From an uncultured Mycoplasmatota bacterium (GTDB taxonomy: Bacteria > Bacillota_I > Bacilli_A > RF39 > UBA660): a stretch of 64,000 nucleotides of DNA. Numbering within the stretch: position 1 is the stretch's first letter; each line of letters begins with the position of its first letter. Both the position numbers and the translations under genes were made by a program. The stretch covers positions 2,912 to 66,911 of the forward strand of contig URIY01000001.1 of assembly GCA_900547995.1 (NCBI GenBank), given 5' to 3'. The notes beneath the pieces are model-generated. The model made no database searches. It saw only the letters and a list, made by a program, of their open reading frames with translations, and had not been told where the DNA came from. Positions 1,075 through 47,931 of the stretch are shown here, piece by piece.

Positions 1075-2130
1075 TTATTTCATTTCCTCCTTAATCTCTT
1101 CTACGCAATATATAACCATAGTAAATATTGTACTTTCATCATCATATATAGGGAATTTAATATCCTGATGGTTATTTTTAAAATTTATTGCATATTCTTT
1201 CAAACTATTAGCATATCCTAATTCTATATCCTTTTTAATTGTATCACAAATTATGTCTATAAATTCATTTTTTTTCTTATCCTTACCAGATATTATTTCT
1301 GTTAACGCTTTTAGACATTTTATTTGAAGGGAAAAATTATCATTTGTTAAACTCGTAATTTGTTCCTCGCATTTTTTATGAAAATCACTATGTTGCGAGT
1401 AATGATAATTAACCATGTCAGTAAACTCTTTTTTACTTATTGCTTTATTTTGATATAAATCTTCAAAGCTACATTCTTTTTCGTATTTCGCTTTATTAAT
1501 AGCTATTGCTTTAATCGAGTCTAATAAAACAGTAGGCTTATTGATAGAACTTTTCTTTTCTTCTTCATAAAACTTGCTTAATTTACCTATTATACTATTT
1601 TCGAAATCTTGAACACCAACATTTCTATATAAATAATAAATGTTTTTTAAGTTAATTGTTTCTTGATTAGTTTCTTTTTGTAAATGTTCTATAATTTTTT
1701 TCTTAACATCTAAATCAATTTCATCTAATAGTATAATTTCATTAGGTTTTGTTGCATATTGATTGTTAACCAAAGGCGCATTCGACACAAGCAATACCGA
1801 AATATTTTCTTTCTCTTCTTCTGTTTTTCCTGATATACTATAAATTCTTCCTATTATTGACTGAGATTTATCACTTTTTTTATTTGTTAAAAAACTAACC
1901 TTATTTGATTTTCCAGTATCGGAAGTTTTTACTTGATAAAACTTTAGTTTATTATCAAAATGTAATTCAATATCGCATACATAGTCAAAAACAACATAAT
2001 AATTATCTATTTTGTTGTAATTATCAATTAATTGCTCTATTCCATATAAAACTTCAAAATCAAATCTATTTTTTGTACGTGATCCTGCTAAGTCATATGG
2101 AAGATTACTATATATCTCCTTTAACTCCAT
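1075..2130 (-). CDS. PD-(D/E)xK nuclease-like protein, candidate Lamassu LmuA (Cap4/DUF4297-type effector)
   Basis: 351 aa. N-terminal segment ...YYVVFDYVCDIELHFDNKLKFYQVKT... fits the D...(D/E)-x-K restriction-endonuclease-fold motif. Tightly coupled upstream of the SMC-like ATPase gene, the gene order expected for lmuA-lmuB. Confidence 0.4.
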   Translation of the reverse strand: MELKEIYSNLPYDLAGSRTKNRFDFEVLYGIEQLIDNYNKIDNYYVVFDYVCDIELHFDNKLKFYQVKTSDTGKSNKVSFLTNKKSDKSQSIIGRIYSISGKTEEEKENISVLLVSNAPLVNNQYATKPNEIILLDEIDLDVKKKIIEHLQKETNQETINLKNIYYLYRNVGVQDFENSIIGKLSKFYEEEKKSSINKPTVLLDSIKAIAINKAKYEKECSFEDLYQNKAISKKEFTDMVNYHYSQHSDFHKKCEEQITSLTNDNFSLQIKCLKALTEIISGKDKKKNEFIDIICDTIKKDIELGYANSLKEYAINFKNNHQDIKFPIYDDESTIFTMVIYCVEEIKEEMK

Positions 2131-2262
2131 TATTATTCCCCCATATAAAAGATAATTTAGATTATTATACCATAAATTGAATTTTTTTATTATATAATAC
2201 TACTTATTATTTTATAATAATTGGAATTATGCTATAATATTATCAGAAATTGGAGGGTTATT

Positions 2263-3063
2263 ATGGCAAATATAAACTTTGAAACTTATTTTAGTGAAAG
2301 CGAAAATAAATATTATGATTCGAAAATTATAATTAATATTCTAGAAAATATACTAGGAAAATCAATTAACGAAATAAAGAAAGATGTTAATGATAATCAA
2401 ATTGTTGTTACAAGGGAAAAAATTGAAAAATATCTTGAACAAAAATTTATTGAAGAAGATCCTGAATTAAAAAAGAGAATTGAAAGTCCAAGTCCTAAAA
2501 GAAGCAGAAATATTGCTGAATGGACAAAACAAGATATTGAAAATTATTCACAAGAGTTTGTAGATGATTTAAGTGTAGCAAGATATTGTTTCGAGCCTTA
2601 TACATTAGAGTACTTTAATAGATATACAGCCATTGTAAGAAATAAAGTTAATATATTATTAAGTCTTATTGAAAAAATTGGCAATAAAGAAATTCAACCA
2701 ATACAAGAGTTGTTAACTGAGTTAGATATTGTATTAGATGAAAATGGTAATGTTCTAAAAAGTGATATAGTTCGCTTAATTACACCTACTATTTATAACA
2801 TTAATTATTTAAATGAAAAACTTGCAAAAGCTAATGACTTATCAACATACCTAACTTTCAAAATGTCAAAACATTCATTATATAGAGATGGTTTCTCTGA
2901 AGGAGAAGTTTATCCTAGTCAATCAATACAAATTAATAGTTTACAATATGATTATATTCAAGGTAATGTTAGATTATCTGAAAATCAAAGAAAAACACTT
3001 GAAGAAGAAAGAAGTAAAAGTCTTAAAAAAAGTGCTGAATTTATATGTAATTTATTTAATTAA
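2263..3063 (+). CDS. hypothetical protein (266 aa from the ATG with a GGAGG RBS; the track ORF starts at 2221)
   Basis: ORF track 2221..3063. A GGAGG sits 8 nt upstream of ATG 2263 (MANINFETYF...). No recognisable motifs. Lies in the island, divergent from the Lamassu-like operon. Confidence 0.5.
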   Translation: MANINFETYFSESENKYYDSKIIINILENILGKSINEIKKDVNDNQIVVTREKIEKYLEQKFIEEDPELKKRIESPSPKRSRNIAEWTKQDIENYSQEFVDDLSVARYCFEPYTLEYFNRYTAIVRNKVNILLSLIEKIGNKEIQPIQELLTELDIVLDENGNVLKSDIVRLITPTIYNINYLNEKLAKANDLSTYLTFKMSKHSLYRDGFSEGEVYPSQSIQINSLQYDYIQGNVRLSENQRKTLEEERSKSLKKSAEFICNLFN

Positions 3064-3070
3064 TTAAAGC

Positions 3071-3098
3071 AAAAGGAAGAGATAAACTCTTCCTTTTG
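3071..3098. terminator. bidirectional hairpin terminator between convergent genes
   Basis: AAAAGGAAGAG-ATAAA-CTCTTCCTTTTG: 10-bp GC-containing stem flanked by an A-run on one side and a T-run on the other, between 2263..3063(+) and 3170..3997(-). Confidence 0.5.
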
Positions 3099-3169
3099 AA
3101 AAACTTCTACCAAGTGTATAAATACACCTGCAACAATCTAAAGTACTTTAATTATACCATTTTAACTCT

Positions 3170-3997
3170 CTAAGTCAACACTTTTTCACGATTTTCTTTA
3201 GATTTATAAATAGTATTATGTTTTTTAATAGTTCCATTTGTTTCTTTTATTTCTTCAAAAGCATAATACTTCTTTATTATTTTTAATATAGCATCATTAT
3301 CTATTTTAGTAATAGTTGCTATTTTATTATTTATATAATATGGTTCTCTAATTCTATTAGAACTAATATTAATTAAGTTTTCTAATCTAGCAGTTCCTAA
3401 TTTTTCATCTAATAAATCATAGTGAAAATAATAATTATCATCTTTATGTTTTGAAGTAAGTGGTATAGCAGTCCACATTTTTTTATTTGATGCACTTCTC
3501 CATAATATTGCTGGTCTTAATTTTCTTAATTCGCTACCAATATTATACCCTAAATCTACCCAATATATAGCTCCAACTTTTAAATTAGTAGTATCATCAC
3601 CATTTTTATTTATTAATTCTAACTTATCTTTACACCATTTATTATATGATATGCCATCTGGATCATTATTTGTATTATCTTTAACATAGTTTAAAAAACT
3701 AATTTTAGATCTTAATAAAATATCATCAAATTCTTTATTAGTTATTTTAATAGGTTTACCTTTAATGTAGACACATCTTTTAATATTAGAGCGATTATAA
3801 TCAGTTATTTCATCTAATACCGCATATTTATTAATAGATTTTAAATGAATACTATTTTCTTTTTCTTCATTATAAACAGGTACTCCAACATAATGATTTT
3901 GTGATATATCATAAAGAATCAAAATCCATTGTTTATTATCATTTAAATTAAATTCATATACTTGCTTCCAATTTATAGTAAGCATATTTATCACCAA
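3170..3997 (-). CDS. PemK/MazF-family toxin domain (C-terminal half) fused to an unknown ~135-aa N-terminal domain
   Basis: C-terminal region GAIYWVDLGYNIGSELRKLRPAILWRS...WTAIPLTS matches the MazF/PemK signature (G-x-[IV]-[YW]-x-x-D-[LF]...GSE....RP-[AV]-[IL]...hhh-P-[IL]-T; compare B. subtilis EndoA [26 protein letters not shown]...TAIVAAIT). Total length 275 aa against ~115 aa for stand-alone MazF. Confidence 0.55.
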   Translation of the reverse strand: MVINMLTINWKQVYEFNLNDNKQWILILYDISQNHYVGVPVYNEEKENSIHLKSINKYAVLDEITDYNRSNIKRCVYIKGKPIKITNKEFDDILLRSKISFLNYVKDNTNNDPDGISYNKWCKDKLELINKNGDDTTNLKVGAIYWVDLGYNIGSELRKLRPAILWRSASNKKMWTAIPLTSKHKDDNYYFHYDLLDEKLGTARLENLINISSNRIREPYYINNKIATITKIDNDAILKIIKKYYAFEEIKETNGTIKKHNTIYKSKENREKVLT

Positions 3998-4012
3998 CTT
4001 TCTTTATTTTAA

Positions 4013-5332
4013 TTATCTTTCTAGTTCATCATCTTTTGATTTTTTTGTTTCATAAAATTCTTCAGCATACTCATCCATTTCATCATTAATATGTTTAGTT
4101 ACTTTTTCAATTTCTTTTTTATTAAATAGATTAAATTTTTTAAATGATTTTTCTCTCTTTCTTATAACTTCAGGATCATATTGTTGTTTAAAAAAATTAA
4201 GGTTAATATTATTATAATTAAATAATCTATCAATTAGATTTTGTATAAATTCTGGAAGTTTTTTGATTATTTTATTTAAATGATAAATAAGATAATCTGT
4301 TCTTTCTTTTAAATCATTGTATCTATTTTCAGTTTGATAATTGATACTCTTTAAATGTTCATTTTCTTCTTTTAATTTTTTATTTTCGTCTAATAATTGA
4401 TTTTTAGATTTAATAATAATTTTATTATTAAGTTTTTTCTTTTTATCAATTTCATCGTTTATATCATCTTTATCTTTATTAAGTTTAGTAATTTGTTTAT
4501 TGATAGATTCTTTATTATCTTCTAAATCAGATACTTCATCTTGAAGATTAGATATTTCTTGTTTAAGTCCTTTAACTCTTTCATTAAAGAGTTTTCTTTC
4601 ATATGAAGTAATATCTCTATTTTTACCTTTTTCTTTTTCTTTAAGTTTAGAATCTAATCCATAGACAATATTAAATTTATTAATACATCTTTCTCTCATC
4701 TTATCTTGAATAACTACTAATGATTCTTTTGTGAAGATAGATGTTTTACCAACTTGTCTTGATAAACCTGTTTTACAATTTTCTTTAACTGGAACTCCAA
4801 CTATATGCATATGAGGAGAATGTTCATCAAAGTGAATTGATGCATTAGCTATATAAAAGTCTGGAACTATTTCTTGTATATCTTCAAGTTGTTGTTCAAA
4901 TACCTGTGTCATTTGATATTTGTATTCTAAACTTTTCTCATCCCAATATTCCATGTTTCCAAGTTCGATAACTATCTCACAAGCAAGATCATGTTTTGTA
5001 TCATTAGCAATTTTATTAAAGTAGTTATTTATCTTTCTATCATCTCTAGTTTGTTTATTATTGTATTCAAGTCTTACTTCATCAAATAAATCTAAATATA
5101 ATTCTTTAACATCTTTAACAATATCATTTGAACCTTTGATTGTCTTAATTAATTCTTGATTATTATCGTATTGTCTTAAGTTATGATGATTAACTTTTCC
5201 TAATTGCTTAACATTTTGAATAGCATTATTATTTTTAGATGTTGTTCCTGATTGAGTATTCTTGGCTTCTTGTCTTGCTTTAATAGATTTGTTTTTATCA
5301 TTACCTAAATGTAGTGAATAAGATAATTCCAT
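4013..5332 (-). CDS. mob: MobV-family relaxase / plasmid recombination enzyme (Mob_Pre)
   Basis: 439 aa. Contains the HxDE..PHxH relaxase motif (ASIHFDEHSPHMHIVGVP) and a C-terminal Lys/Glu-rich coiled coil typical of Pre/Mob proteins. Confidence 0.75.
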   Translation of the reverse strand: MELSYSLHLGNDKNKSIKARQEAKNTQSGTTSKNNNAIQNVKQLGKVNHHNLRQYDNNQELIKTIKGSNDIVKDVKELYLDLFDEVRLEYNNKQTRDDRKINNYFNKIANDTKHDLACEIVIELGNMEYWDEKSLEYKYQMTQVFEQQLEDIQEIVPDFYIANASIHFDEHSPHMHIVGVPVKENCKTGLSRQVGKTSIFTKESLVVIQDKMRERCINKFNIVYGLDSKLKEKEKGKNRDITSYERKLFNERVKGLKQEISNLQDEVSDLEDNKESINKQITKLNKDKDDINDEIDKKKKLNNKIIIKSKNQLLDENKKLKEENEHLKSINYQTENRYNDLKERTDYLIYHLNKIIKKLPEFIQNLIDRLFNYNNINLNFFKQQYDPEVIRKREKSFKKFNLFNKKEIEKVTKHINDEMDEYAEEFYETKKSKDDELER

Positions 5333-5577
5333 TTAAATTACACCCCCTAAATTATGAATATTGAAAATGGCACGAAAGTGGCTTTGTCATTATTCATAAC
5401 TTCCTATATATCTTGTCAGAGACAAGATATGGAAGCTAAGGTTTACCACCTTAGAAACCGTTTATACTTTATTTCACAATAACTAAACTATCGTAATAGT
5501 TAAAGTTCATAAAGTATTAATTTTTAAATTGCTATCGCCACTTTCATTTACTTCGTAAACAAAACGTGCCACGCATT

Positions 5578-7485
<1,908 letters not shown>

Positions 7486-8032: not shown

Positions 8033-8109
8033 TGGGGCGAGATAAGGGAATCGAACCCTTGCATAACGGAACCACAATCCGCCGTGTTAACCACTTCACC
8101 AATCTCGCC
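8033..8109 (-). tRNA. tRNA-His (anticodon GUG) with the His-specific extra G-1 paired to C73 and an encoded CCA
   Basis: Reverse complement folds as a cloverleaf: GGCGAGA acceptor / GCGGA-UUGUGGU-UCCGU anticodon arm (GUG at positions 34-36) / GGGTTCGATTCCC T-arm; 77 nt. Confidence 0.8.
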
Positions 8110-10229: not shown

Positions 10230-11022
10230 TATGCACCTCAATTTGTGGATATGGTATCTTAATATTTTCTTTATCAAATAAATTCTTAATTTCTTTCATT
10301 ATTAATCTTTGTACTTCATATTGTTTATAAGACTCTGTTTCAGCCGTAATTCTAATAATTACAGCACTATCTGCAAGTTCATTTATACCAAGTACTTTAA
10401 TATCACTTTTTAAAAATGGTATTCTTTTATTTTTCTTGATATCAATAAACAAATTATTTAATAATTTTTCTACTTTTTCATAGTCTTCCTCATATGCAAC
10501 AGATACGTCAACAAGGGCAAATGATGACATTTGACTATAATTTATTACTTCTGAAATATTTCTATTTGATAAAATTTTAACCTCACCCGTATAACTTCTT
10601 ATACGTGTTGTTTTAAGTCCAAGACCAATAACCTCTCCTTTAAAATCTCCAACACTTATTATATCACCTATACAATATTGATTTTCAAATATAATAGTCA
10701 TTCCTGATATAAAATCTTTAAGCAAATCTTGAAGAGCAAGACCAACTACAAGTCCAAGTACACCAAGTGAAGCAATTAATGATTTAGTATCCACACCAAA
10801 AATATCTAAAATCATTAAAAGGGCAACTATTAAAATAAAATATTTAACAACATTATATACTAACGAATAAATAGTTTTTTGTTTATTAGAAATATTTTTT
10901 TTAATTTTAAAAAATCTTTTTAATAGTTTTTTACAAATTAAATTAAGTAAAAAAGATATAATAATAATCAATATAGGAGCAACAATCTCCTTAACTAGTA
11001 TTTTATCAAGCATACTATTCAC
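10213..11022 (-). CDS. MscS-family small-conductance mechanosensitive channel
   Basis: 269 aa. TM segments followed by ...GLALQDLLKDFISGMTIIFENQYCIGDIISVGDFKGEVIGLGLKTTRIRSYTGEVKILSNRNI..., the MscS beta-domain signature. Confidence 0.75.
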   Translation of the reverse strand: MNSMLDKILVKEIVAPILIIIISFLLNLICKKLLKRFFKIKKNISNKQKTIYSLVYNVVKYFILIVALLMILDIFGVDTKSLIASLGVLGLVVGLALQDLLKDFISGMTIIFENQYCIGDIISVGDFKGEVIGLGLKTTRIRSYTGEVKILSNRNISEVINYSQMSSFALVDVSVAYEEDYEKVEKLLNNLFIDIKKNKRIPFLKSDIKVLGINELADSAVIIRITAETESYKQYEVQRLIMKEIKNLFDKENIKIPYPQIEVHNGKGI

Positions 11023-11890
11023 CTATATTAATTACTTCAAGTATTCTATTTAAATCAGCTGTATTACTAAATGATATTTCAATCTTATGATTTCTAACCT
11101 TAACTTTAGAATCAAGTTTTTCACTCATTAGTTCTTCAATATATTTATACTCATCATTAGAATCTTGTCTATTTATTTTTACTTTTTTTTCAATTGTTTT
11201 ATCGCTAGTTATTTTTTCTATATCTCTAACTGGCATTTTCTTTTCAACTATTTCATTTGCCAGTTTTTTAATTTCTTCTTCATCAGATAATTTACTAAGT
11301 ACCCTTGCATGTCCCATAGATATATCATTTGATACAACTAAATTTTGAACATCATCAGGTAATTTTAATAATCCTAGCATATTTGTAATATGGCTTCTAC
11401 TTTTACCTACTTTTTTAGCAAGTTCTTCTTGTGTTAAATGTAAATTATTTAACATTAATTCATATGCTTTTGCCTCTTCCATCGCATTTAAATTTTCTCT
11501 TTGTAAATTTTCAAGAAGAGCTATTTCCATCATTTGTTCATCTGTAAAAGTTCTTATGATGGCTGGAATAGTTGTTTTACCTGCTAATTTACTTGCACGA
11601 ACACGTCTTTCACCTGCAATTATTTCATAACCTTTTATGCTTTTTTTAATTATAACTGGTTGAAATACACCATGTTCTTTTATTGATTCTGCAAGTTCAT
11701 TAAGTGCATTTTCATCAAATACTTTTCTTGGTTGATATGGATTTGGTCTTAATTCATCAAGATTTACTTCAATAATTTCTTCATTAGATGCAGAATCATA
11801 AATTTGTTTTTCAATACTTTCAACATCTAAATTTTCTGTATTAAAAAGTTGTTCCAATCCACGTCCTAATGCTCTTTTTTTATTATCCAT
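11015..11890 (-). CDS. parB: chromosome partitioning protein ParB (Spo0J)
   Basis: 291 aa. ParB N-terminal motifs (NPYQPRKVFDE..., GERRVRASKLAG) and HTH (SRSHITNMLGLL); immediately downstream of soj. Confidence 0.85.
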   Translation of the reverse strand: MDNKKRALGRGLEQLFNTENLDVESIEKQIYDSASNEEIIEVNLDELRPNPYQPRKVFDENALNELAESIKEHGVFQPVIIKKSIKGYEIIAGERRVRASKLAGKTTIPAIIRTFTDEQMMEIALLENLQRENLNAMEEAKAYELMLNNLHLTQEELAKKVGKSRSHITNMLGLLKLPDDVQNLVVSNDISMGHARVLSKLSDEEEIKKLANEIVEKKMPVRDIEKITSDKTIEKKVKINRQDSNDEYKYIEELMSEKLDSKVKVRNHKIEISFSNTADLNRILEVINIGE

Positions 11891-12702
11891 TAGTTACCTC
11901 CATTTTCTTCTTTTGCGGCTCTTTCGTTTCTTTCTATAACTTCTTTAGCTAGATTTAGGTATGCTTCTGTCCCTCTGCTATGTGGGTCATACGCTAAAAT
12001 AGGTTTCCCATGACTTGGTGCTTCAGATAAGCGAACAAGTCTAGGTATAATTGTATCATAAACTCTTTCTTTAAAATAACTCTTTATATCTTCAACTACT
12101 TCTAACCCAAGGTTGGTTCTATTATCAAGCATAGTTAAAAGAACGCCTTCTATATCAAGAGTTGGATTTAAACTCTTTTGAGCAAGCATTATTGTACTAA
12201 GTAGTTGCATTATTCCTTCCAACGCAAAAAATTCACATTGTACTGGAATTATTACTGAATCTGATGCTGTTAAAGCATTTGTAGTTAATACTCCAAGTGA
12301 TGGTGGACAATCAATGATCACAAAATCAAACATATCACGAGCTTGATCTAAATATTTTTTTAGCTGACCACCCTTTACAAATCCAGGTTCATTTCTACTT
12401 TTTTCCATTAATTCTATATCAGCACCTGCTAAATTAATAGTTGCAGGAAGTACATAAAGATTTTTAAATTTAGTCTTAATCATAACTTCTTTTAATGTAG
12501 CATTATCTATCAATAAATCATATACACTTTTACTAATATCTGCCTTGTTTATACCAATTCCTGTTGTTGTATTACCTTGTGGATCTAAATCTACTAATAA
12601 TACTTTCTTTTTTAATACTCCAAGTGAGGCTGCCAAATTAATGCTAGAAGTAGTTTTACCAACTCCACCCTTTTGATTTACTAATGAAATAATTTTTCCC
12701 AT
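11890..12702 (-). CDS. soj: chromosome partitioning ATPase ParA (Soj)
   Basis: 270 aa. Deviant Walker A KGGVGKTT and ParA/MinD fold motifs. Confidence 0.9.
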   Translation of the reverse strand: MGKIISLVNQKGGVGKTTSSINLAASLGVLKKKVLLVDLDPQGNTTTGIGINKADISKSVYDLLIDNATLKEVMIKTKFKNLYVLPATINLAGADIELMEKSRNEPGFVKGGQLKKYLDQARDMFDFVIIDCPPSLGVLTTNALTASDSVIIPVQCEFFALEGIMQLLSTIMLAQKSLNPTLDIEGVLLTMLDNRTNLGLEVVEDIKSYFKERVYDTIIPRLVRLSEAPSHGKPILAYDPHSRGTEAYLNLAKEVIERNERAAKEENGGN

Positions 12703-12869
12703 ACAACATTCACTCCTAATTTTCTATCTATATTATATAATATCATATTTTGAGATATAAATCTATTAATTTTTTATTTCATCTATAATTTTAAAAAAGG
12801 AAGAAATTAATTTTTCTCCCTTTACTAATTATAAATTGTTTTATTAAATTCTATAATTTAACAATTAGA

Positions 12870-13208
12870 TTATTTTTTTAAGCATTTTGTTTTTTCTTTT
12901 GAATCATTCTCTTCCGCTTCTGCTTTATTTCTTCTATTATACAATTCAACTAATTTTTTGTTTTCTTTTACTTGCACACGTAATGATGCAACTGTCATTA
13001 CTGATATAAATGCTAATCCAACAATAGAACCAATATTATCTAAAGAAGCAAGCGCATAACCACCAAGCGATGCACCAAGCGTAGTAACAGAAGTTGCAAC
13101 GCTAAACTTCATAAGACACCTGCTAAACTCAACACTTTCCTGAGCCTTTTTTTGCTCTAATTCATTAATTGGTTCTTCAACACTTGTAATCTTATATTTT
13201 TTTTCCAT
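12870..13208 (-). CDS. small membrane protein, paralog 1 of a tandem family (conserved N- and C-termini, divergent hydrophobic core)
   Basis: MEKKYKITSVEEPINELEQKKAQES...hydrophobic core...EENDSKEKTKCLKK; a paralog of 13389..13742 and 14116..14439. Confidence 0.5.
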   Translation of the reverse strand: MEKKYKITSVEEPINELEQKKAQESVEFSRCLMKFSVATSVTTLGASLGGYALASLDNIGSIVGLAFISVMTVASLRVQVKENKKLVELYNRRNKAEAEENDSKEKTKCLKK

Positions 13209-13388
13209 TTTATTTCCACCATCTTTTTATGGCACATACTCTATCATAAAATTTTCATCTTGTCAATACTTTTATTTTTTGTATAATAAAAGCATGAATT
13301 TTAAAAACTCATGCACTTATCATATTTTTTACCAATTCTCTATTTATTGTAAATTTATTCTATTAAATTCTATAATTTAACAATTAGA

Positions 13389-13742
13389 TTATTTTTTTAA
13401 GCATTTTGTTTTTTCTTTTGAATCATTCTCTTCTGCTTCATCTTCTTTTGTTTCTCTCTCATCATATAAATTAAATAAATCTTGTGATGCTTGATCATTT
13501 AAACCTGAACATATCATTGATATTCCAAAGAAAAAAGCTGCAGCAATATAAAAATTTTGATTCTCCGTAAAAGCAGCAGTAATAATAGAATCTGCCATCA
13601 CTACGCTAGAAATTAGAGTAAATGAAGATGTAAGAGATAATTTTATAAGTGTCTTTGCAAATTTCTTACTCTCTTTAGCCCTTTTTTCTTCTAACTCATT
13701 AACTGGTTCTTCAACACCTGTAATCTTATATTTCTTTTCCAT
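13389..13742 (-). CDS. small membrane protein, paralog 2 of the tandem family
   Basis: MEKKYKITGVEEPVNELEEKRAKESKKF...EENDSKEKTKCLKK; flanking DNA is near-identical to that of paralog 1. Confidence 0.5.
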   Translation of the reverse strand: MEKKYKITGVEEPVNELEEKRAKESKKFAKTLIKLSLTSSFTLISSVVMADSIITAAFTENQNFYIAAAFFFGISMICSGLNDQASQDLFNLYDERETKEDEAEENDSKEKTKCLKK

Positions 13743-13894
13743 TTTATTTTCCCCCTCTTTTTATGTCACATACTCTATCATAAAATTTTCATTTTGTCAA
13801 TGCTTTTATTATAAAAATAAAAGCTTTTATAAAAAAATAAAAGCATGAATTTTAAAAACTCATGCACTTGTCATATTTTTTACTAATTTTTTAT

Positions 13895-14119
13895 TTATTG
13901 TGAAATTGCTTTATTAAATTCTATAATTAATTGACCAAATAAATTAGTATCACTAACAACTGTTATTTCATCATTTTCTATTTCACCAATAATAAAATCT
14001 TTATAGTCATCTAATCCTGATAAATAAACATATTTTTTACCTTCAAACATTATTGAACTAACAAAAACATATTTTTTATTATTACCAAGAGTAACAATTA
14101 AATCTTTTTCTTTATTCAT
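13895..14119 (-). CDS. DUF1292-like small protein
   Basis: 74 aa, ...EGKKYVYLSGLDD...EITVV... pattern typical of DUF1292. 4-nt ATGA overlap with paralog 3 upstream, suggesting co-transcription. Confidence 0.45.
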   Translation of the reverse strand: MNKEKDLIVTLGNNKKYVFVSSIMFEGKKYVYLSGLDDYKDFIIGEIENDEITVVSDTNLFGQLIIEFNKAISQ

Positions 14120-14439
14120 TTTGTTTTTCCTTCCATATCATTTTTATTTTCATCTTCTTCTACTTCATCTTCTTTTGTTTCTCTTTTATTATACATATCA
14201 ATTAAAGTACCTGCATGAAAAGTTGTACATAGTGTAGATAGCGATGCCATTATACCCAAAAATATTGCAGCAGCACGCATATTAGAATTATTCAACATTG
14301 AATTAAACAATATAGTATTACCAGATGAAACAACTGTTGCTAGAAGTGTCATTACAAACTTTTTATTCTCCTTAACTCTTTTTTTTAATAATTCATTAGA
14401 TGGTTCTTCTATACTTTTAACTTTATATTTTTCATCCAT
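14116..14439 (-). CDS. small membrane protein, paralog 3 of the tandem family
   Basis: MDEKYKVKSIEEPSNELLKKRVKENKKF...YNKRETKEDEVEED...; same architecture as paralogs 1 and 2. Confidence 0.5.
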   Translation of the reverse strand: MDEKYKVKSIEEPSNELLKKRVKENKKFVMTLLATVVSSGNTILFNSMLNNSNMRAAAIFLGIMASLSTLCTTFHAGTLIDMYNKRETKEDEVEEDENKNDMEGKTK

Positions 14440-14472
14440 AAAATCAACTCCCTACATACATAATAACATAAT

Positions 14473-14495
14473 CTAAACAAAAAAGGAAGAAATTT
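14473..14495 (-). terminator. rho-independent terminator downstream of ftsH
   Basis: GGAAGAAA-(6 nt)-TTTCTTCC hairpin (8-bp stem, 6-nt loop) followed on the transcribed strand by a T-run (TTTTTTG). Confidence 0.55.
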
Positions 14496-16476
14496 ATTTT
14501 TCTTCCAATTCTTTAATTAATTCTTCTTTAGTCATTTTTGAATAACCTTTAATTTCTTTTTCTTTAGCCATTTCACGAAGTTCAGTTAAAGTAAGATCTT
14601 CTAAAGATAATTCTTTTATTTCTTCTTTTTCAACTTCTTCATCAGGCATATGTCCATGTTCAACTAAATAATCAATTTGTTCTTTTGTAATTGTTTCTCT
14701 TTCAAGAAGAGTATTTGCGATTAAATCTAATAAATCTTTATTTTCAGAAATAATTTTTTGTGTTACTTTATAACATTCATCAATTATTTTACGCATCTCT
14801 TCATCAATCTCAAAAGCAACTTGACTAGAGAATATTTGACGTTTATTGTAATCTCTTCCTAAGAAAACACTACCTTCTTGTTGTTCAAATTGAACAGGTC
14901 CAAGTGAACTCATACCATATTCTGTTACCATAGCGCGAGCAATTTTAGTTGCTTTTTCAAAGTCATTATGTGCTCCTGTTGTTACCTCATGGAACATAAA
15001 TTCTTCAGCAACTCTACCACCTAATAGTCCACTAATTGTTTGTAGCAATTCTGTTTTAGTTTGTAAATATGTTTCTTCTTTTGGAAGCATTAAATTATAG
15101 CCACCAGCCATTCCTCTTGGAATGATAGTGATTTTTTGAACATCATTTGCTCCCTCAAGTTTTAAGCCAACAACAGCATGACCAGCTTCATGATAAGCAA
15201 CTGTTCTCTTTTCTTTTTCAGTATATTTATGACTCTTTTTAGCAGGACCCATTAATACTCTATCATGAGCTTCATCAAGTTCGGCCATAGTAATAACTTC
15301 TTTACCTCTTCTAACAGCAAGTAAGGCAGCTTCATTAAGTAAGTTTTCTAGGTCTGCTCCACTAAATCCTACTGTTCTTTTAGCAATATTTTCAAGGGTA
15401 ATTCCTTTAGCAAACTTTTTATTTCTAGCATGTACTTCAAGTATTTCTTTACGACCATTTTGGTCAGGTAAATTAACTTGTACTTGACGGTCAAAACGTC
15501 CTGGTCTAAGTAAGGCTGGGTCTAGAACGTCTGGTCTATTAGTTGCAGCAATAATTATGATTCCCTCATTAGCACCAAAACCATCCATTTCTGTTAATAA
15601 TTGATTTAGGGTTTGTTCACGTTCATCGTGTCCTCCACCAAGACCTGCGCCTCTTTGACGTCCAACAGCATCTATTTCATCAATAAATATTAAACAAGGT
15701 GCATTATGTTTTGCTTGTTTGAACATGTCTCTTACACGACTTGCTCCAACACCAACAAATAACTCAACGAAGTCTGAACCACTTATAAAATAGAACGGAA
15801 CATTTGCTTCACCAGCAACAGCTCTTGCAAGAAGTGTTTTACCTGTTCCTGGAGGACCAACTAACAATACTCCCTTTGGAATTCTTGCACCAAGTTTTTG
15901 AAATTTCTTTGGATTTTTCAAGAAATCAATTAATTCTTGAACTTCTTCTTTTTCCTCAGTTAATCCAGCAACATCTTTAAATGTTACTTTCTTACTATCT
16001 TCACTTAAACGAGCACGTGATTTTCCAAAATCCATAGATTTATTGGCTGTACCCATTTGTCTTGTTATAAAGAAGAAGGCAAAACCAATAAGTAGTACCA
16101 TTGGTAATACATTTATAACAAATAGTAAAAAGGTACTTGATTCTGGATCAGTTGATGTATTAATAACAAATGCATAATTGTCACTTGCTGTTAATACTTG
16201 TGTCATTACTTCTTCAGCAAGTGGTGCTCTAAAGAAGAATGATTCATTTTCTTCATATCCCTTTAGTTTTCCTTTTATTTCATATACACTTGCTCTACTT
16301 CTTGGTGTTATAGTTACTTCTGTAACTTTACCTTCAGCAACATCCTTCATAAATTCATCATATGTAATAACATTTACTTTGCTATTCATAGAATTTAAGA
16401 AGAACATTACACCTATAAGTATAAGAAATAAAAACAAGTATGGTAATAATCCTCTTTTGATGTTTTTCTTATTCAT
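14494..16476 (-). CDS. ftsH: ATP-dependent zinc metalloprotease FtsH with C-terminal Rho_N-like extension
   Basis: 660 aa. AAA Walker [18 protein letters not shown] zinc motif. C-terminal ...[30 protein letters not shown] resembles the Rho termination factor N-terminal (Rho_N) motif. Confidence 0.9.
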
Positions 16477-24825: not shown

Positions 24826-25070
24826 ACAAAAAAACATCCTCATATAAGGACGTTTAAAACGCGGTACCACCTTAATTTATAGTTTAAAACTATATCTCTT
24901 TCGTTTAACGCACTTTACCTTACGTTCTAACCTACATATCGATTAGACTACAATCCGAAACCATTTATTTTATGTCTTTATTATTTGCTTTCACCACGTG
25001 CAAATTCTCTTTGAATAAGATACATAAAACTCTTTTCTTCACTGTATTTATTAACCGTACTATACCATAA
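24826..25070 (-). ncRNA. T-box riboswitch leader upstream of dut-metG
   Basis: Minus strand contains the conserved T-box sequence AATTAAGGTGGTACCGCG (plus-strand coordinates 24860..24877). It is followed by a terminator hairpin AACGTCCT-TATATG-AGGATGTT + TTTTTTTG, then an AGGAGG RBS. Lies upstream of an operon ending in metG. Confidence 0.6.
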
Positions 25071-37774: not shown

Positions 37775-37791
37775 CTATACCTCCACAAAAA

Positions 37792-37880
37792 AAGCACACA
37801 CATTAAGTGACTTTTAAGGCTGCTACCTTCCGATTCTGACCTGGTTCAAGTATTAACGTTGTGCATATGTATTATTACAT
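37792..37880 (-). ncRNA. ffs: signal recognition particle RNA (small 4.5S-type SRP RNA)
   Basis: Reverse complement contains CCAGGUCAGAAUCGGAAGGUAGCAGCC, matching SRP RNA domain IV consensus (CCAGGUCAGGUCCGGAAGGAAGCAGCC). Flanked by complementary 5'/3' arms and followed by GCTTTTTTT. Canonical position between tadA and dnaX. Ends approximate. Confidence 0.65.
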
Positions 37881-46492: not shown

Positions 46493-47845
46493 TTACTTTA
46501 ATTGACTTTCAATTTTTTTAATTATAAGTTCAAGGTTACTATCTTTTTTTATAGCTTTTTTAATTTTATCCACCGAGTGCATAACAGTCGTATGATCTTT
46601 TCCACCAAATTCCATTCCTATTTTGGGAAACGATTCTTCACAGACAACTCTACATATATACATAGCCACTTGTCTTGGAACAGCGATGTTAGCATTTCTT
46701 TTCTTACTTTTTAAGTCATCTATGGTAATGTTATATGTGTCGGCAACAAGTTGTTGTACTAAATCAATTTTATTTTTTGATATTATTGTTTTAGCGAAAT
46801 AATCTTTTAAAGCCTCTATGGCAAGTTCAATTGTTATACTAGAACCATTCATCATTGTGGAAAAAGCGGCTACCCTAGTAATTGCACCTTCAAGTTTTCT
46901 TATATCACTTGTACAATTACTCGCTATATACTCTTTAACTTCAATTGGGAAGTATTTAACCATATCATTGCCTTCAATTTTTTTATCAATAATATGCATT
47001 CTAAGTTCAAAATCCGGTGGAAATACGTTTGTAGTAAGTCCCCAACTAAATCTAGTCTGAAGTCTTTCCTCAAGGGCTTTTAAGTCATCGGGTGATCTAT
47101 CTGATGTAATAATAATTTGTTTATTATTCCCATATAATTCATTAAAGGTATTAAAAAATTCTTGTTGGGCTTTATTAGCAATTTGCAAATATTGTATATC
47201 ATCTATCATTAAGACATCAATATCTCTATATTTAGTTTTAAAATATTTTACATCATTAATGTTATCATTATCTTTATTCTTTCTATATAAATCAATAAAA
47301 TCATTAACAAATTGCTCACTTGTTACATATAAAACTCTTTTTTTTGAGTTTTTAACAATATAGTTTCCAATAGCGTGCATCAAATGTGTTTTTCCTAGCC
47401 CACTTTTTCCATATATAAATAAAGGATTATACATTATACCTGGTTTTTCAGCAACAGCTAGTGCTACTGTTCGTGCAAATTTATTACTCTCCCCTACTAT
47501 AAAATTTTCAAAAGTATATTGTGGTTTTAAATTGTTTTCCACCATATTAATTGATGGAACACCTATTTCTTCATCATTTACTTGAACATTCTTTTCAATT
47601 TCATCATCCGTATAATACTCAAATTGAAAATTGGAGCCTGTAACAAGAGCAAATGTTTCCACGATAAGTTCATTATAGTTTTCTTTCAAATGCTTTTTAT
47701 GAATATGCATAGGAACAATTACCTTGGCTGTTTCATTATTTAATTCTGCAAGTTTTGTTTCCATAAACCATGTTTCATATAGCATTGGTGAAATTTCTTC
47801 TTTTATCTTATCCAAAAAGGTTTTCCATATATTTTCTAAGTCCAT
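46493..47845 (-). CDS. dnaA: chromosomal replication initiator protein DnaA (start at MDLENIW with GGGTGAGG RBS; the track ORF starts at an upstream GTG)
   Basis: AAA+ Walker A GKSGLGKTHL, Walker B, C-terminal DNA-binding domain (...HTTVMHSVDKI...). Confidence 0.95.
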   Translation of the reverse strand: MDLENIWKTFLDKIKEEISPMLYETWFMETKLAELNNETAKVIVPMHIHKKHLKENYNELIVETFALVTGSNFQFEYYTDDEIEKNVQVNDEEIGVPSINMVENNLKPQYTFENFIVGESNKFARTVALAVAEKPGIMYNPLFIYGKSGLGKTHLMHAIGNYIVKNSKKRVLYVTSEQFVNDFIDLYRKNKDNDNINDVKYFKTKYRDIDVLMIDDIQYLQIANKAQQEFFNTFNELYGNNKQIIITSDRSPDDLKALEERLQTRFSWGLTTNVFPPDFELRMHIIDKKIEGNDMVKYFPIEVKEYIASNCTSDIRKLEGAITRVAAFSTMMNGSSITIELAIEALKDYFAKTIISKNKIDLVQQLVADTYNITIDDLKSKKRNANIAVPRQVAMYICRVVCEESFPKIGMEFGGKDHTTVMHSVDKIKKAIKKDSNLELIIKKIESQLK

Positions 47846-47931
47846 AACCTCACCCACTACATCAATCTATCCCCATTGTACCTTATTTTTACACAAAAAA
47901 CAAACAAAATGTGACAAAATCACAAAAAAAC

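Follow-up and report, generated by a model that had tools for sequence, protein, structure and literature searches.

A strain-variable array of small membrane protein genes between soj and ftsH, very probably derived from a self-contained two-gene module in an uncultured gut bacterium

Introduction

How did a tandem array of small membrane protein genes come to lie between soj and ftsH, from what was it built, and what might its products do? These questions are raised by a 64,000-nucleotide (nt) stretch of DNA (GC = 25.8%; hereafter the window) from an uncultured Mycoplasmatota bacterium (GenBank assembly GCA_900547995.1, contig URIY01000001.1, positions 2,912 to 66,911). The source belongs to an uncultured, small-genome lineage of gut Bacilli, and almost nothing is known of the accessory functions of this lineage. 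The list of open reading frames (ORFs) in the window contains four ORFs between ftsH (14494-16476, minus strand) and soj (11890-12702, minus strand), all of them on the minus strand. Three encode paralogous small membrane proteins (smp) and the fourth encodes an acidic soluble protein of 74 amino acids (aa; o74). An initial annotation, made from the letters of the window, had drawn attention to this array, and its claims are taken up below where the results bear on them.

Results

Read in the direction of transcription, the array begins with paralog 3 (14116-14439, 107 aa), the smp copy that is still coupled to o74 (13895-14119). The ATG of o74 overlaps the stop codon of paralog 3 as ATGA, a 4-nt overlap, in agreement with the translational coupling that had been proposed for this pair. 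Two monocistronic smp genes follow, paralog 2 (13389-13742, 117 aa, identical to P0001) and paralog 1 (12870-13208, 112 aa, identical to P0002), referred to here as cassettes A and B. The three paralogs thus lie where they had first been described. Comparison of the window with itself found three pairs of repeated blocks, 12833-12933 and 13352-13452 (91% identity), 13285-13377 and 13836-13928 (90%), and 13083-13276 and 13617-13810 (80%). The similarity of these blocks is far beyond chance expectation, and the flanks that had been called near-identical proved to be 90-91% identical. The repeat units measure ~520-550 bp each.

The end of paralog 3, o74 and the terminator behind it were aligned with the regions behind paralogs 2 and 1. 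In this alignment the 3' flanks of the cassettes equal the paralog-3/o74 unit minus an internal o74 piece of ~163 nt. Behind cassette A (13315-13403, minus strand), the start region and first ~9 codons of o74 are fused to its last ~11 codons; the Shine-Dalgarno (SD) sequence is eroded there and TGA has become TGC. A relic was also recognized behind cassette B (12824-12884, minus strand), both by alignment and by tblastn, in which o74 residues 65-72 matched 12857-12834, behind paralog 1, at 87.5%. The junction of SD GGAGG and ATGA is conserved in smp-o74 pairs and eroded in cassettes, where TGA has changed to TGC, TGT or AGT; because of this change, cassette products carry a read-through tail, KTKCLKK. 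Since the cassette flanks match the paired unit without the o74 piece, paralogs 1 and 2 go back to duplication of the paralog-3/o74 unit and subsequent loss of o74. The conserved 3' flanks had been interpreted as a regulatory block; they are instead the relic of the 74-aa gene together with its terminator.

It is therefore very probable that the array is a strain-variable, tandem derivative of a rare, self-contained two-gene module (smp and o74) that was duplicated, suffered deletion of o74 and exchanged its units. The ancestral unit would have consisted of an smp gene (~105-120 aa; charged cytoplasmic N-tail, two helices, short outside loop, charged cytoplasmic C-tail) and o74, a predicted acidic beta-barrel-plus-helix protein. 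In this species the unit would have been duplicated in tandem between ftsH and soj, and deletion of ~163 nt of o74 from the duplicates would have left monocistronic smp cassettes, each with a promoter-like site and a terminator hairpin. Unequal crossing-over or gene conversion between units would then have changed the number of cassettes and shuffled their segments. Paralogs 1 and 2 differ at synonymous sites (dS) by ~0.7 in their N-terminal and core parts and by ~0.2 in their C-terminal part, and their 3' flanks differ by 9%; this unequal divergence of segments suggests a mosaic produced by gene conversion or recombination. Of the proposed "recent duplication with diversification", the tandem duplication, the diversified core and the conserved termini and flanks stand. 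The word "recent" is too simple, since the segments differ in divergence.

Conspecific strains were compared on gut metagenome contigs (Hadza sample labels appear in several of the record names, and the words "gut metagenome" in one). Their ftsH and soj genes are 98.2-99.6% identical in nt sequence to those of the window, paralog 3 is 98.5-99.7% identical among strains, and the position of the array, 3' of ftsH and 5' of soj, is constant in all of them. The content of the array varies. The window carries the paralog-3/o74 pair with cassettes A (117 aa) and B (112 aa), L001/L002 carry the pair with A (119 aa) and C (120 aa), L006-L013 and L121 carry it with C only, and L100-105 with A only. In L112 a frameshifted paralog 3 (an A8 run reduced to A6, plus substitutions) lies beside o74 and A. 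In L014-016 the core of paralog 3 is replaced by unrelated sequence with stops, its partner (o76) is intact, and a cassette D (109 aa) is present. The contigs of L106-108 start at the cassettes, A' and B, and do not cover the pair. Cassette A forms an allelic series among these strains. The comparison of copy number that had been suggested thus gave one or two cassettes of four core types, a pattern attributed here to the proposed unequal crossing-over or gene conversion. As expected, many contigs break at the array because of its repeats. Where a contig spans the whole locus, o74 is never seen without at least one intact smp, and smp-only cassettes are common. Paralog 3 is lost only in strains keeping a cassette, and the cassette ORFs are intact in all ~30 contigs and all four types.

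The A8 run lies in the N-terminal coding part of paralog 3 (14336-14343), and its A6 counterpart in L112 lies at ~2985-2990. Truncated paralog 3 products (P0017-P0020) were present in several samples. The changes in the A-run and the truncated products could represent decay or slipped-strand switching. Phase variation through the A8 run was considered for L112 and set aside; other substitutions are also present there, so the gene looks like one in decay. P0015, which joins a type C core to the C-terminus of paralog 3, was likewise not accepted as evidence of recombination, as it occurs only on contigs of at most 721 nt and may be an assembly artefact.

Transcription signals were sought across the locus, all positions in this paragraph being on the minus strand. 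The terminator scan found four terminator-like sites compared to 0.2 in shuffled sequences. The upstream boundary of the locus is the predicted intrinsic terminator of ftsH (14485-14506; RNA fold -11.1 kcal/mol, z=-3.1). It is followed by a putative extended -10 element, TGTTATTAT (14460-14468), read from the sequence, and by the SD GGGAG of paralog 3 (14448-14452). The hairpin that had been reported in both copies of a repeated block was found at 13843-13865 and 13292-13314. On the coding strand it reads GCATGAGTTTTTAAAATTCATGC and is followed by a U-run, and it folds well below shuffled controls. The terminator scan reported both copies, the first as the terminator of the paralog-3/o74 operon (copy 2; -10.2 kcal/mol, then UUUUAUUUUUU) and the second as that of cassette A (copy 1; -16.6 kcal/mol, z=-5.7). 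Cassette B ends in a different, terminator-like hairpin (12796-12823; an inverted repeat, -17.1 kcal/mol, z=-4.3, then a U-run), which forms the downstream boundary before soj. The block at 13290-13380 and 13835-13930 had been taken for an upstream regulatory flank and is really the 3' trailer and terminator of the preceding transcription unit.

The blocks upstream of paralogs 1 and 2 hold promoter-like sites (TTGACA-17-TGnTAGAGT), as judged by their match to the consensus. TTGACA-17-TAGAGT with a TG extension lies at 13772-13800 before cassette A (10/12 matches) and, by consensus scan, at 13238-13266 before cassette B. Promoter-like matches as a class occur at chance level in this 26% GC DNA (17 found, 13.6 expected). 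The element also precedes the cassettes of other strains, and in paralogs 1 and 2 an SD, GAGGGGG/GATGGTGG, lies 3' of it. For the pair, TGTTATTAT is inferred to be the promoter. The consensus scan, which required a -35 hexamer, did not report this element for paralog 3; its position matches that of TGATATAAT/TGATACAAT upstream of the pair in the distant relatives L117, L120 and L019. Because of this layout of signals, the array is divided into three units, paralog 3 with o74, promoter with paralog 2, and promoter with paralog 1, each with a terminator.

Distant members of the family were then located on their contigs. Every distant smp that could be placed on a contig has an o74 homologue directly downstream of it, with a 4-nt overlap. 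The pair lies between metG and tatD in L019, between an aminoacyl-tRNA synthetase gene and a DUF421 gene in L114-116 and near a CtpB-like protease gene in L120; in L117-119 it adjoins the Mob_Pre relaxase and large serine recombinase of a mobilizable element. Five different contexts are thus seen for the module, one of them on a mobilizable element. In L020, the nearest genome found in a collection of species-representative genomes, soj follows ftsH directly and the module is absent. The study species itself was not recovered from this collection by a scan with Soj, for which the best identity was 81% (L020), and an smp-pattern scan of the same collection gave no confirmed locus. The unrelated contexts and the empty site in L020 argue for a self-contained mobile two-gene module, the position beside ftsH being specific to this species.

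An integrated mobilizable element is also present in the window (1075-7431, minus strand), beside a tRNA gene (8036-8108). It encodes a large serine recombinase (5578-7431, minus), a Mob_Pre relaxase (4013-5332, minus) and, directly after the relaxase, a 275-aa protein with a PemK/MazF toxin domain (3170-3997, minus). A 280-aa ORF without a Pfam match (2221-3063, plus) and a Cap4-nuclease-domain protein (1075-2130, minus) complete it. The relaxase and recombinase are 55-56% identical in aa sequence to those of the L117 element, in which the smp-o73 pair lies next to the relaxase.

The proteins encoded by paralogs 1-3 are 36-45% identical in pairwise alignment. They share the N-terminus M-E/D-K/E-K-Y-K-I/V..EEP.NEL and, in two copies, the C-terminus ENDSKEKTKCLKK, and their central hydrophobic parts are far more divergent than the termini, which confirms the earlier description of conserved ends around variable cores. 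Distant members keep the N-terminal KYKIT..EP.N.LE, two hydrophobic segments, LYNK after segment 2 and the ending GGKT[KR]. Hydropathy profiles display two hydrophobic segments (KD19 peaks 1.64-1.85; 1.76 for paralog 3) between charged termini. The AlphaFold2 (AF2) model of paralog 3, with an extended N-terminus, helices at 16-48 and 55-101 and a 6-residue loop, is of low confidence (pLDDT 60.7) and was used solely to back the two-helix prediction. Hydropathy and model thus agree with the transmembrane topology that had been expected, a two-helix membrane protein. Basic residues flanking the helices suggest an N-in/C-in orientation.

Neither the three smp proteins nor o74 gave a match above threshold in Pfam, NCBIfam or PADLOC. 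Among PHROGs, paralog 1 had sub-threshold matches to phrog_20 (holin; E=2e-4) and phrog_1350 (E=0.036), and paralogs 2 and 3 had none. A word-indexed search of 5.8 billion proteins returned 21 smp clusters, and an exhaustive HMMER search of 1.84 billion representatives returned 13 at 50% identity. In the literature searched, nothing was found that describes the smp/o74 family, and DUF1292 appears merely in passing mentions. Both proteins of the module belong to undescribed families, and the smp/o74 family has a narrow distribution, limited to one small group of gut Bacilli that are uncultured.

The o74 family (proteins of 73-76 aa) comprises 17 clusters, all at least 76% identical. In the distant modules o74 is 50-84% identical, compared to 19-43% for smp relative to paralog 3. 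In every pair the smp gene ends with ..GGAGG(T/A)A(A/G)AACAAGATGA, which contains both the SD and the overlapping start of o74; the conserved smp C-terminus GGKT[K/R] is explained by the presence of these signals within its codons. The AF2 model of o74 is confident (pLDDT 85.5) and consists of five strands and a C-terminal helix. It had no significant fold neighbour in PDB or BFVD, and an o74 profile found nothing below E=0.068 among PDB sequences. A lone weak PADLOC match (E=0.004, to a 601-residue profile) was disregarded. No relatives were found in viral contigs (IMG/VR), GenBank phages or PLSDB plasmids, and a scan of Joint Genome Institute metagenomes added two close relatives and nothing else.

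The initial annotation had assigned o74 to DUF1292 (UPF0473, PF06949), the family of B. subtilis YrzB. Like o74, DUF1292 proteins are small, acidic and cytoplasmic and occur in Firmicutes; they also have a similar order of beta-strands with a helix at the C-terminus, a likeness that probably led to that family being named. No function is known for DUF1292. The assignment finds no support, as o74 has no match to PF06949 at E<=1 and an alignment of 15 sequences (o74 and 14 homologues) has none at E<=10. The precomputed Pfam fields are empty for 17/17 homologue clusters. The operon context typical of DUF1292, yrzL-ruvX-yrzB, is not found either; o74 always lies behind smp, not next to ruvX or yrzL, and its neighbours are ftsH/soj, metG/tatD, aminoacyl-tRNA synthetase/DUF421 or Mob_Pre.

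Selection was assessed from Nei-Gojobori estimates of the ratio of nonsynonymous to synonymous divergence (dN/dS). The cytoplasmic tails of cassette alleles have dN/dS of 0.06-0.28 despite dS of 0.2-0.5 (Fisher p ~1e-4), which suggests that the cassettes encode functional proteins whose tails matter. Core values are 1.2-1.4 between cassette types and 2.1-5.5 between cassettes and paralog 3, both near saturation. Within type A they range from 0.9 to 6.8, with one pair alone at p=0.03, uncorrected. Type A alleles differ chiefly in helix 1 and the loop, where substitutions are concentrated, with conserved tails and an almost unchanged helix 2. In the single-copy paired smp of L117 and L120, the core gives 0.10. 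These ratios point to a constrained core in the ancestral smp and to cassette cores that appear relaxed or diversifying after duplication.

Discussion

A function of the toxin-antitoxin (TA) or abortive-infection kind was considered because the genes overlap, their distribution is patchy, insertion sites differ, one module lies on a mobilizable element and orphans of one partner exist. By analogy, the closest functional counterpart of the locus appears to be a small mobile pair, of the TA or defence type, in which an orphan partner has expanded. We tentatively suggest, as a possibility short of an even chance, that the module is an accessory, horizontally mobile TA- or defence-like pair in which the smp membrane proteins hold o74 by their conserved tails. 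The smp protein would insert in the membrane and bind or sequester o74 via its cytoplasmic tails (the KYKIT..EP.N.LE motif and LYNK after helix 2). Orphan cassettes would be extra, harmless tethers, and their helix 1 and outside loop, freed from the coupled role, could diversify. Tethering is favoured because o74 evolves slowly, smp lies upstream in the pair, orphan smp genes are tolerated and diversify, o74 is not seen without an intact smp on contigs spanning the locus, and paralog 3 is lost only beside a cassette. In type II TA systems the antitoxin is usually the upstream gene. The PemK/MazF and Cap4-nuclease genes of the homologous element in the window were counted as supporting context.

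Type II TA systems (mazEF, higBA) resemble the module in consisting of two small genes, read in the same direction, that overlap by 4 nt and are translationally coupled, as in the window, L019, L114, L117 and L120, and in having a patchy distribution, differing contexts in related species, carriage on a mobilizable element and one-partner orphans. Unlike them, smp and o74 have no homology to a known toxin or antitoxin superfamily (Pfam, NCBIfam, PADLOC, PDB sequence and fold searches), one partner is integral to the membrane, and a DNA-binding antitoxin domain is not recognisable. Several observations weigh against tethering of a toxic or defensive o74. Searches of Pfam, NCBIfam, PADLOC and PHROGs gave no above-threshold match of a module protein to a toxin, antitoxin, defence or holin family, and a full-text literature search for membrane-anchored antitoxins found none. 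The small, acidic o74 is more like antitoxins or inhibitors than toxins, and a protein that was just a selfish toxin would not be expected to be so strongly conserved in all strains. Positive selection on the core is statistically insecure, most chromosomal neighbours are housekeeping genes, and the module was found on none of the phages or plasmids searched. The more specific proposal of an undescribed mobile conflict module (TA or abortive-infection type), with a highly conserved small beta-barrel effector on interchangeable two-helix tethers and a strain-variable repertoire of orphan tethers, diversifying in helix 1 and the outer loop, that tunes effector release or exclusion, is speculative and rather doubtful.

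The roles could instead be reversed, with smp proteins as holin-like, membrane-permeabilising toxins and o74 as a cytoplasmic antitoxin or antiholin, neutralising every paralog in trans via its conserved tails. Such an arrangement would suit the small, acidic o74, which is like many antitoxins and is never lost while any smp stays. It would also suit the charged tails and the two helices of moderate hydrophobicity, in which small residues abound; these features recall membrane toxins and class II holins or holin-antiholin pairs (~100 aa, two hydrophobic helices, predicted N-in/C-in, highly charged C-tail, rapid divergence). The weak phrog_20 match of paralog 1 points the same way. However, conservation is much higher in the supposed antitoxin than in the toxin, the opposite of the usual pattern, the toxin would come first in the gene order, and the orphan "toxin" cassettes surpass the coupled copy in their SD and in how near their promoter-like sites come to consensus, with one antitoxin gene only. 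The merely moderate hydrophobicity of the smp segments is also a difference from holins. Endolysin, spanin and phage context are absent from every smp locus, and no member was found in phage collections. The earlier label "holin-like" came down to topology and a sub-threshold PHROG match in one of the three paralogs (phrog_20), with no Pfam or NCBIfam holin match, and is not upheld. Reversal of roles is thus rather unlikely. Unlikely, too, is a role of smp in immunity to, or exclusion of, an agent that targets the membrane (a bacteriocin, an entering phage or incoming DNA), with specificity set by helix 1 and the loop, the array as a repertoire peculiar to each strain, and o74 as an accessory chaperone or regulator. 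The position of type A variation, dN/dS above 1 in some allele pairs and the carriage of one module as cargo on a mobilizable element would fit such a role. So would the resemblance to orphan immunity-gene arrays of polymorphic toxins and bacteriocins, which likewise consist of tandem small membrane proteins, variable in copy number and type among strains, with conserved recombinogenic ends and divergent cores. Against it, no bacteriocin, exporter, cognate toxin or secretion gene lies near the smp loci (within 4-6 kb in the loci examined), and positive selection is not robust. The single-copy paired core is under strong purifying selection, and the basal state of the family is a pair with a conserved, coupled cytoplasmic partner, which is atypical of immunity genes.

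Paralogs 1 and 2 might be decaying, functionless duplicates, or repeats of a type I toxin with an antisense RNA, as at the LDR loci of E. coli, for which tandem repeats have been described (Fozo et al. 2010, PMC2887945). Core dN/dS is ~1 and o74 is already deleted from the cassettes. The tandem ~0.5-kb units, with their own promoter and terminator, a small hydrophobic protein gene and strain-variable copy number, resemble ldr/rdl and ibs/sib repeats, and a plus-strand promoter-like site lies at 13260-13287. This site has no counterpart in the second copy, however, and such matches are at chance frequency. All cassette ORFs are intact, significant purifying selection is seen in their tails even though dS is substantial, and promoter-like site, SD and terminator hairpin are conserved. 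The proteins (107-120 aa with two helices, compared to <60 aa with one) exceed type I toxins two- to threefold in length, there is no conserved antisense promoter or Rfam match to an RNA at the array, and the ancestral partner is a protein, o74, rather than an RNA. Decay or a type I system is therefore very unlikely. Least credible of all is that smp and o74 act as modulators or substrates of FtsH, or in chromosome segregation with Soj/Spo0J. They lie directly 3' of ftsH and 5' of soj in all conspecific strains, and a small membrane protein whose charged tails are disordered could plausibly be a client of FtsH. Yet the module is far from ftsH and soj in four other lineages (L019, L114, L117, L120), L020 has ftsH-soj without an insert, and Pfam/NCBIfam searches gave no similarity to the FtsH modulators HflK/C, YccA or SpoVM.

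If the TA- or defence-like reading is true, the locus would represent a two-partner mobile module with an unprecedented arrangement of a membrane-embedded and a conserved soluble partner. If the module proves to be an ordinary membrane accessory, the finding amounts to an annotation correction and little more. The evolutionary history is clear and instructive. The locus provides a natural example of a two-gene operon that, through duplication and internal deletion, became an array of single-gene cassettes, and of a protein C-terminus, GGKT[KR], that reflects nucleotide-level constraint from an embedded ribosome-binding site and an overlapping start. It is also a natural example of a hypervariable island within core genes that are 98-99.6% identical, and could mark strains in gut metagenomes.

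Additional observations

Just upstream of the smp-o73 pair in L019, a 56-aa hydrophobic ORF (4290-4460) was noted, the sequence of which is unrelated to smp. Between o76 and cassette D in L014 (5231-5715; also in L015 and L017) lies an insertion of ~410 nt that resembles a miniature inverted-repeat transposable element (MITE), with inverted ends containing AATTCCG; it is absent from the otherwise near-identical L016. In L017, o76 appears next to ftsY, a context that was rejected as a probable assembly chimera, since the contig changes context inside this repeated element. The switch within the insertion suggests that the element is multi-copy and breaks assemblies.

Also within the window is the replication-origin region, that of a low-GC Firmicute. 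The labels of putative dnaA, dnaN, recF, gyrB and gyrA on the minus strand and of rnpA to rsmG on the plus strand are a reading of ORF order and sizes. The soj-spo0J genes (11015-12702) lie ~34 kb from putative dnaA (46493-47857), on the dnaA-gyrA side and downstream of tilS-ftsH. In most Firmicutes, soj-spo0J adjoins rsmG/gidB. In the related metagenome-assembled genomes L022 and L023, soj comes after a noc/parB-like gene instead. FtsH (14494-16476) carries a C-terminal Rho_N domain (PF07498), according to precomputed Pfam matches of a protein of the same length in related contigs, an appendage that is unusual for FtsH. Across the whole window, the only Rfam matches at gathering score were a T-box leader (24843-25051), a small signal recognition particle RNA (37779-37873) and the tRNA at 8036-8108. 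The slot past an abgT-like transporter gene and a 92-aa gene (left of 8500 in the window; ~11.5 kb in L001-L004 and ~11.2-12.2 kb in L006-L012) varies among conspecific strains. Some of them have a type II Cas9 gene at this site and others a tyrosine integrase, and in the window it is occupied by the serine-recombinase element.

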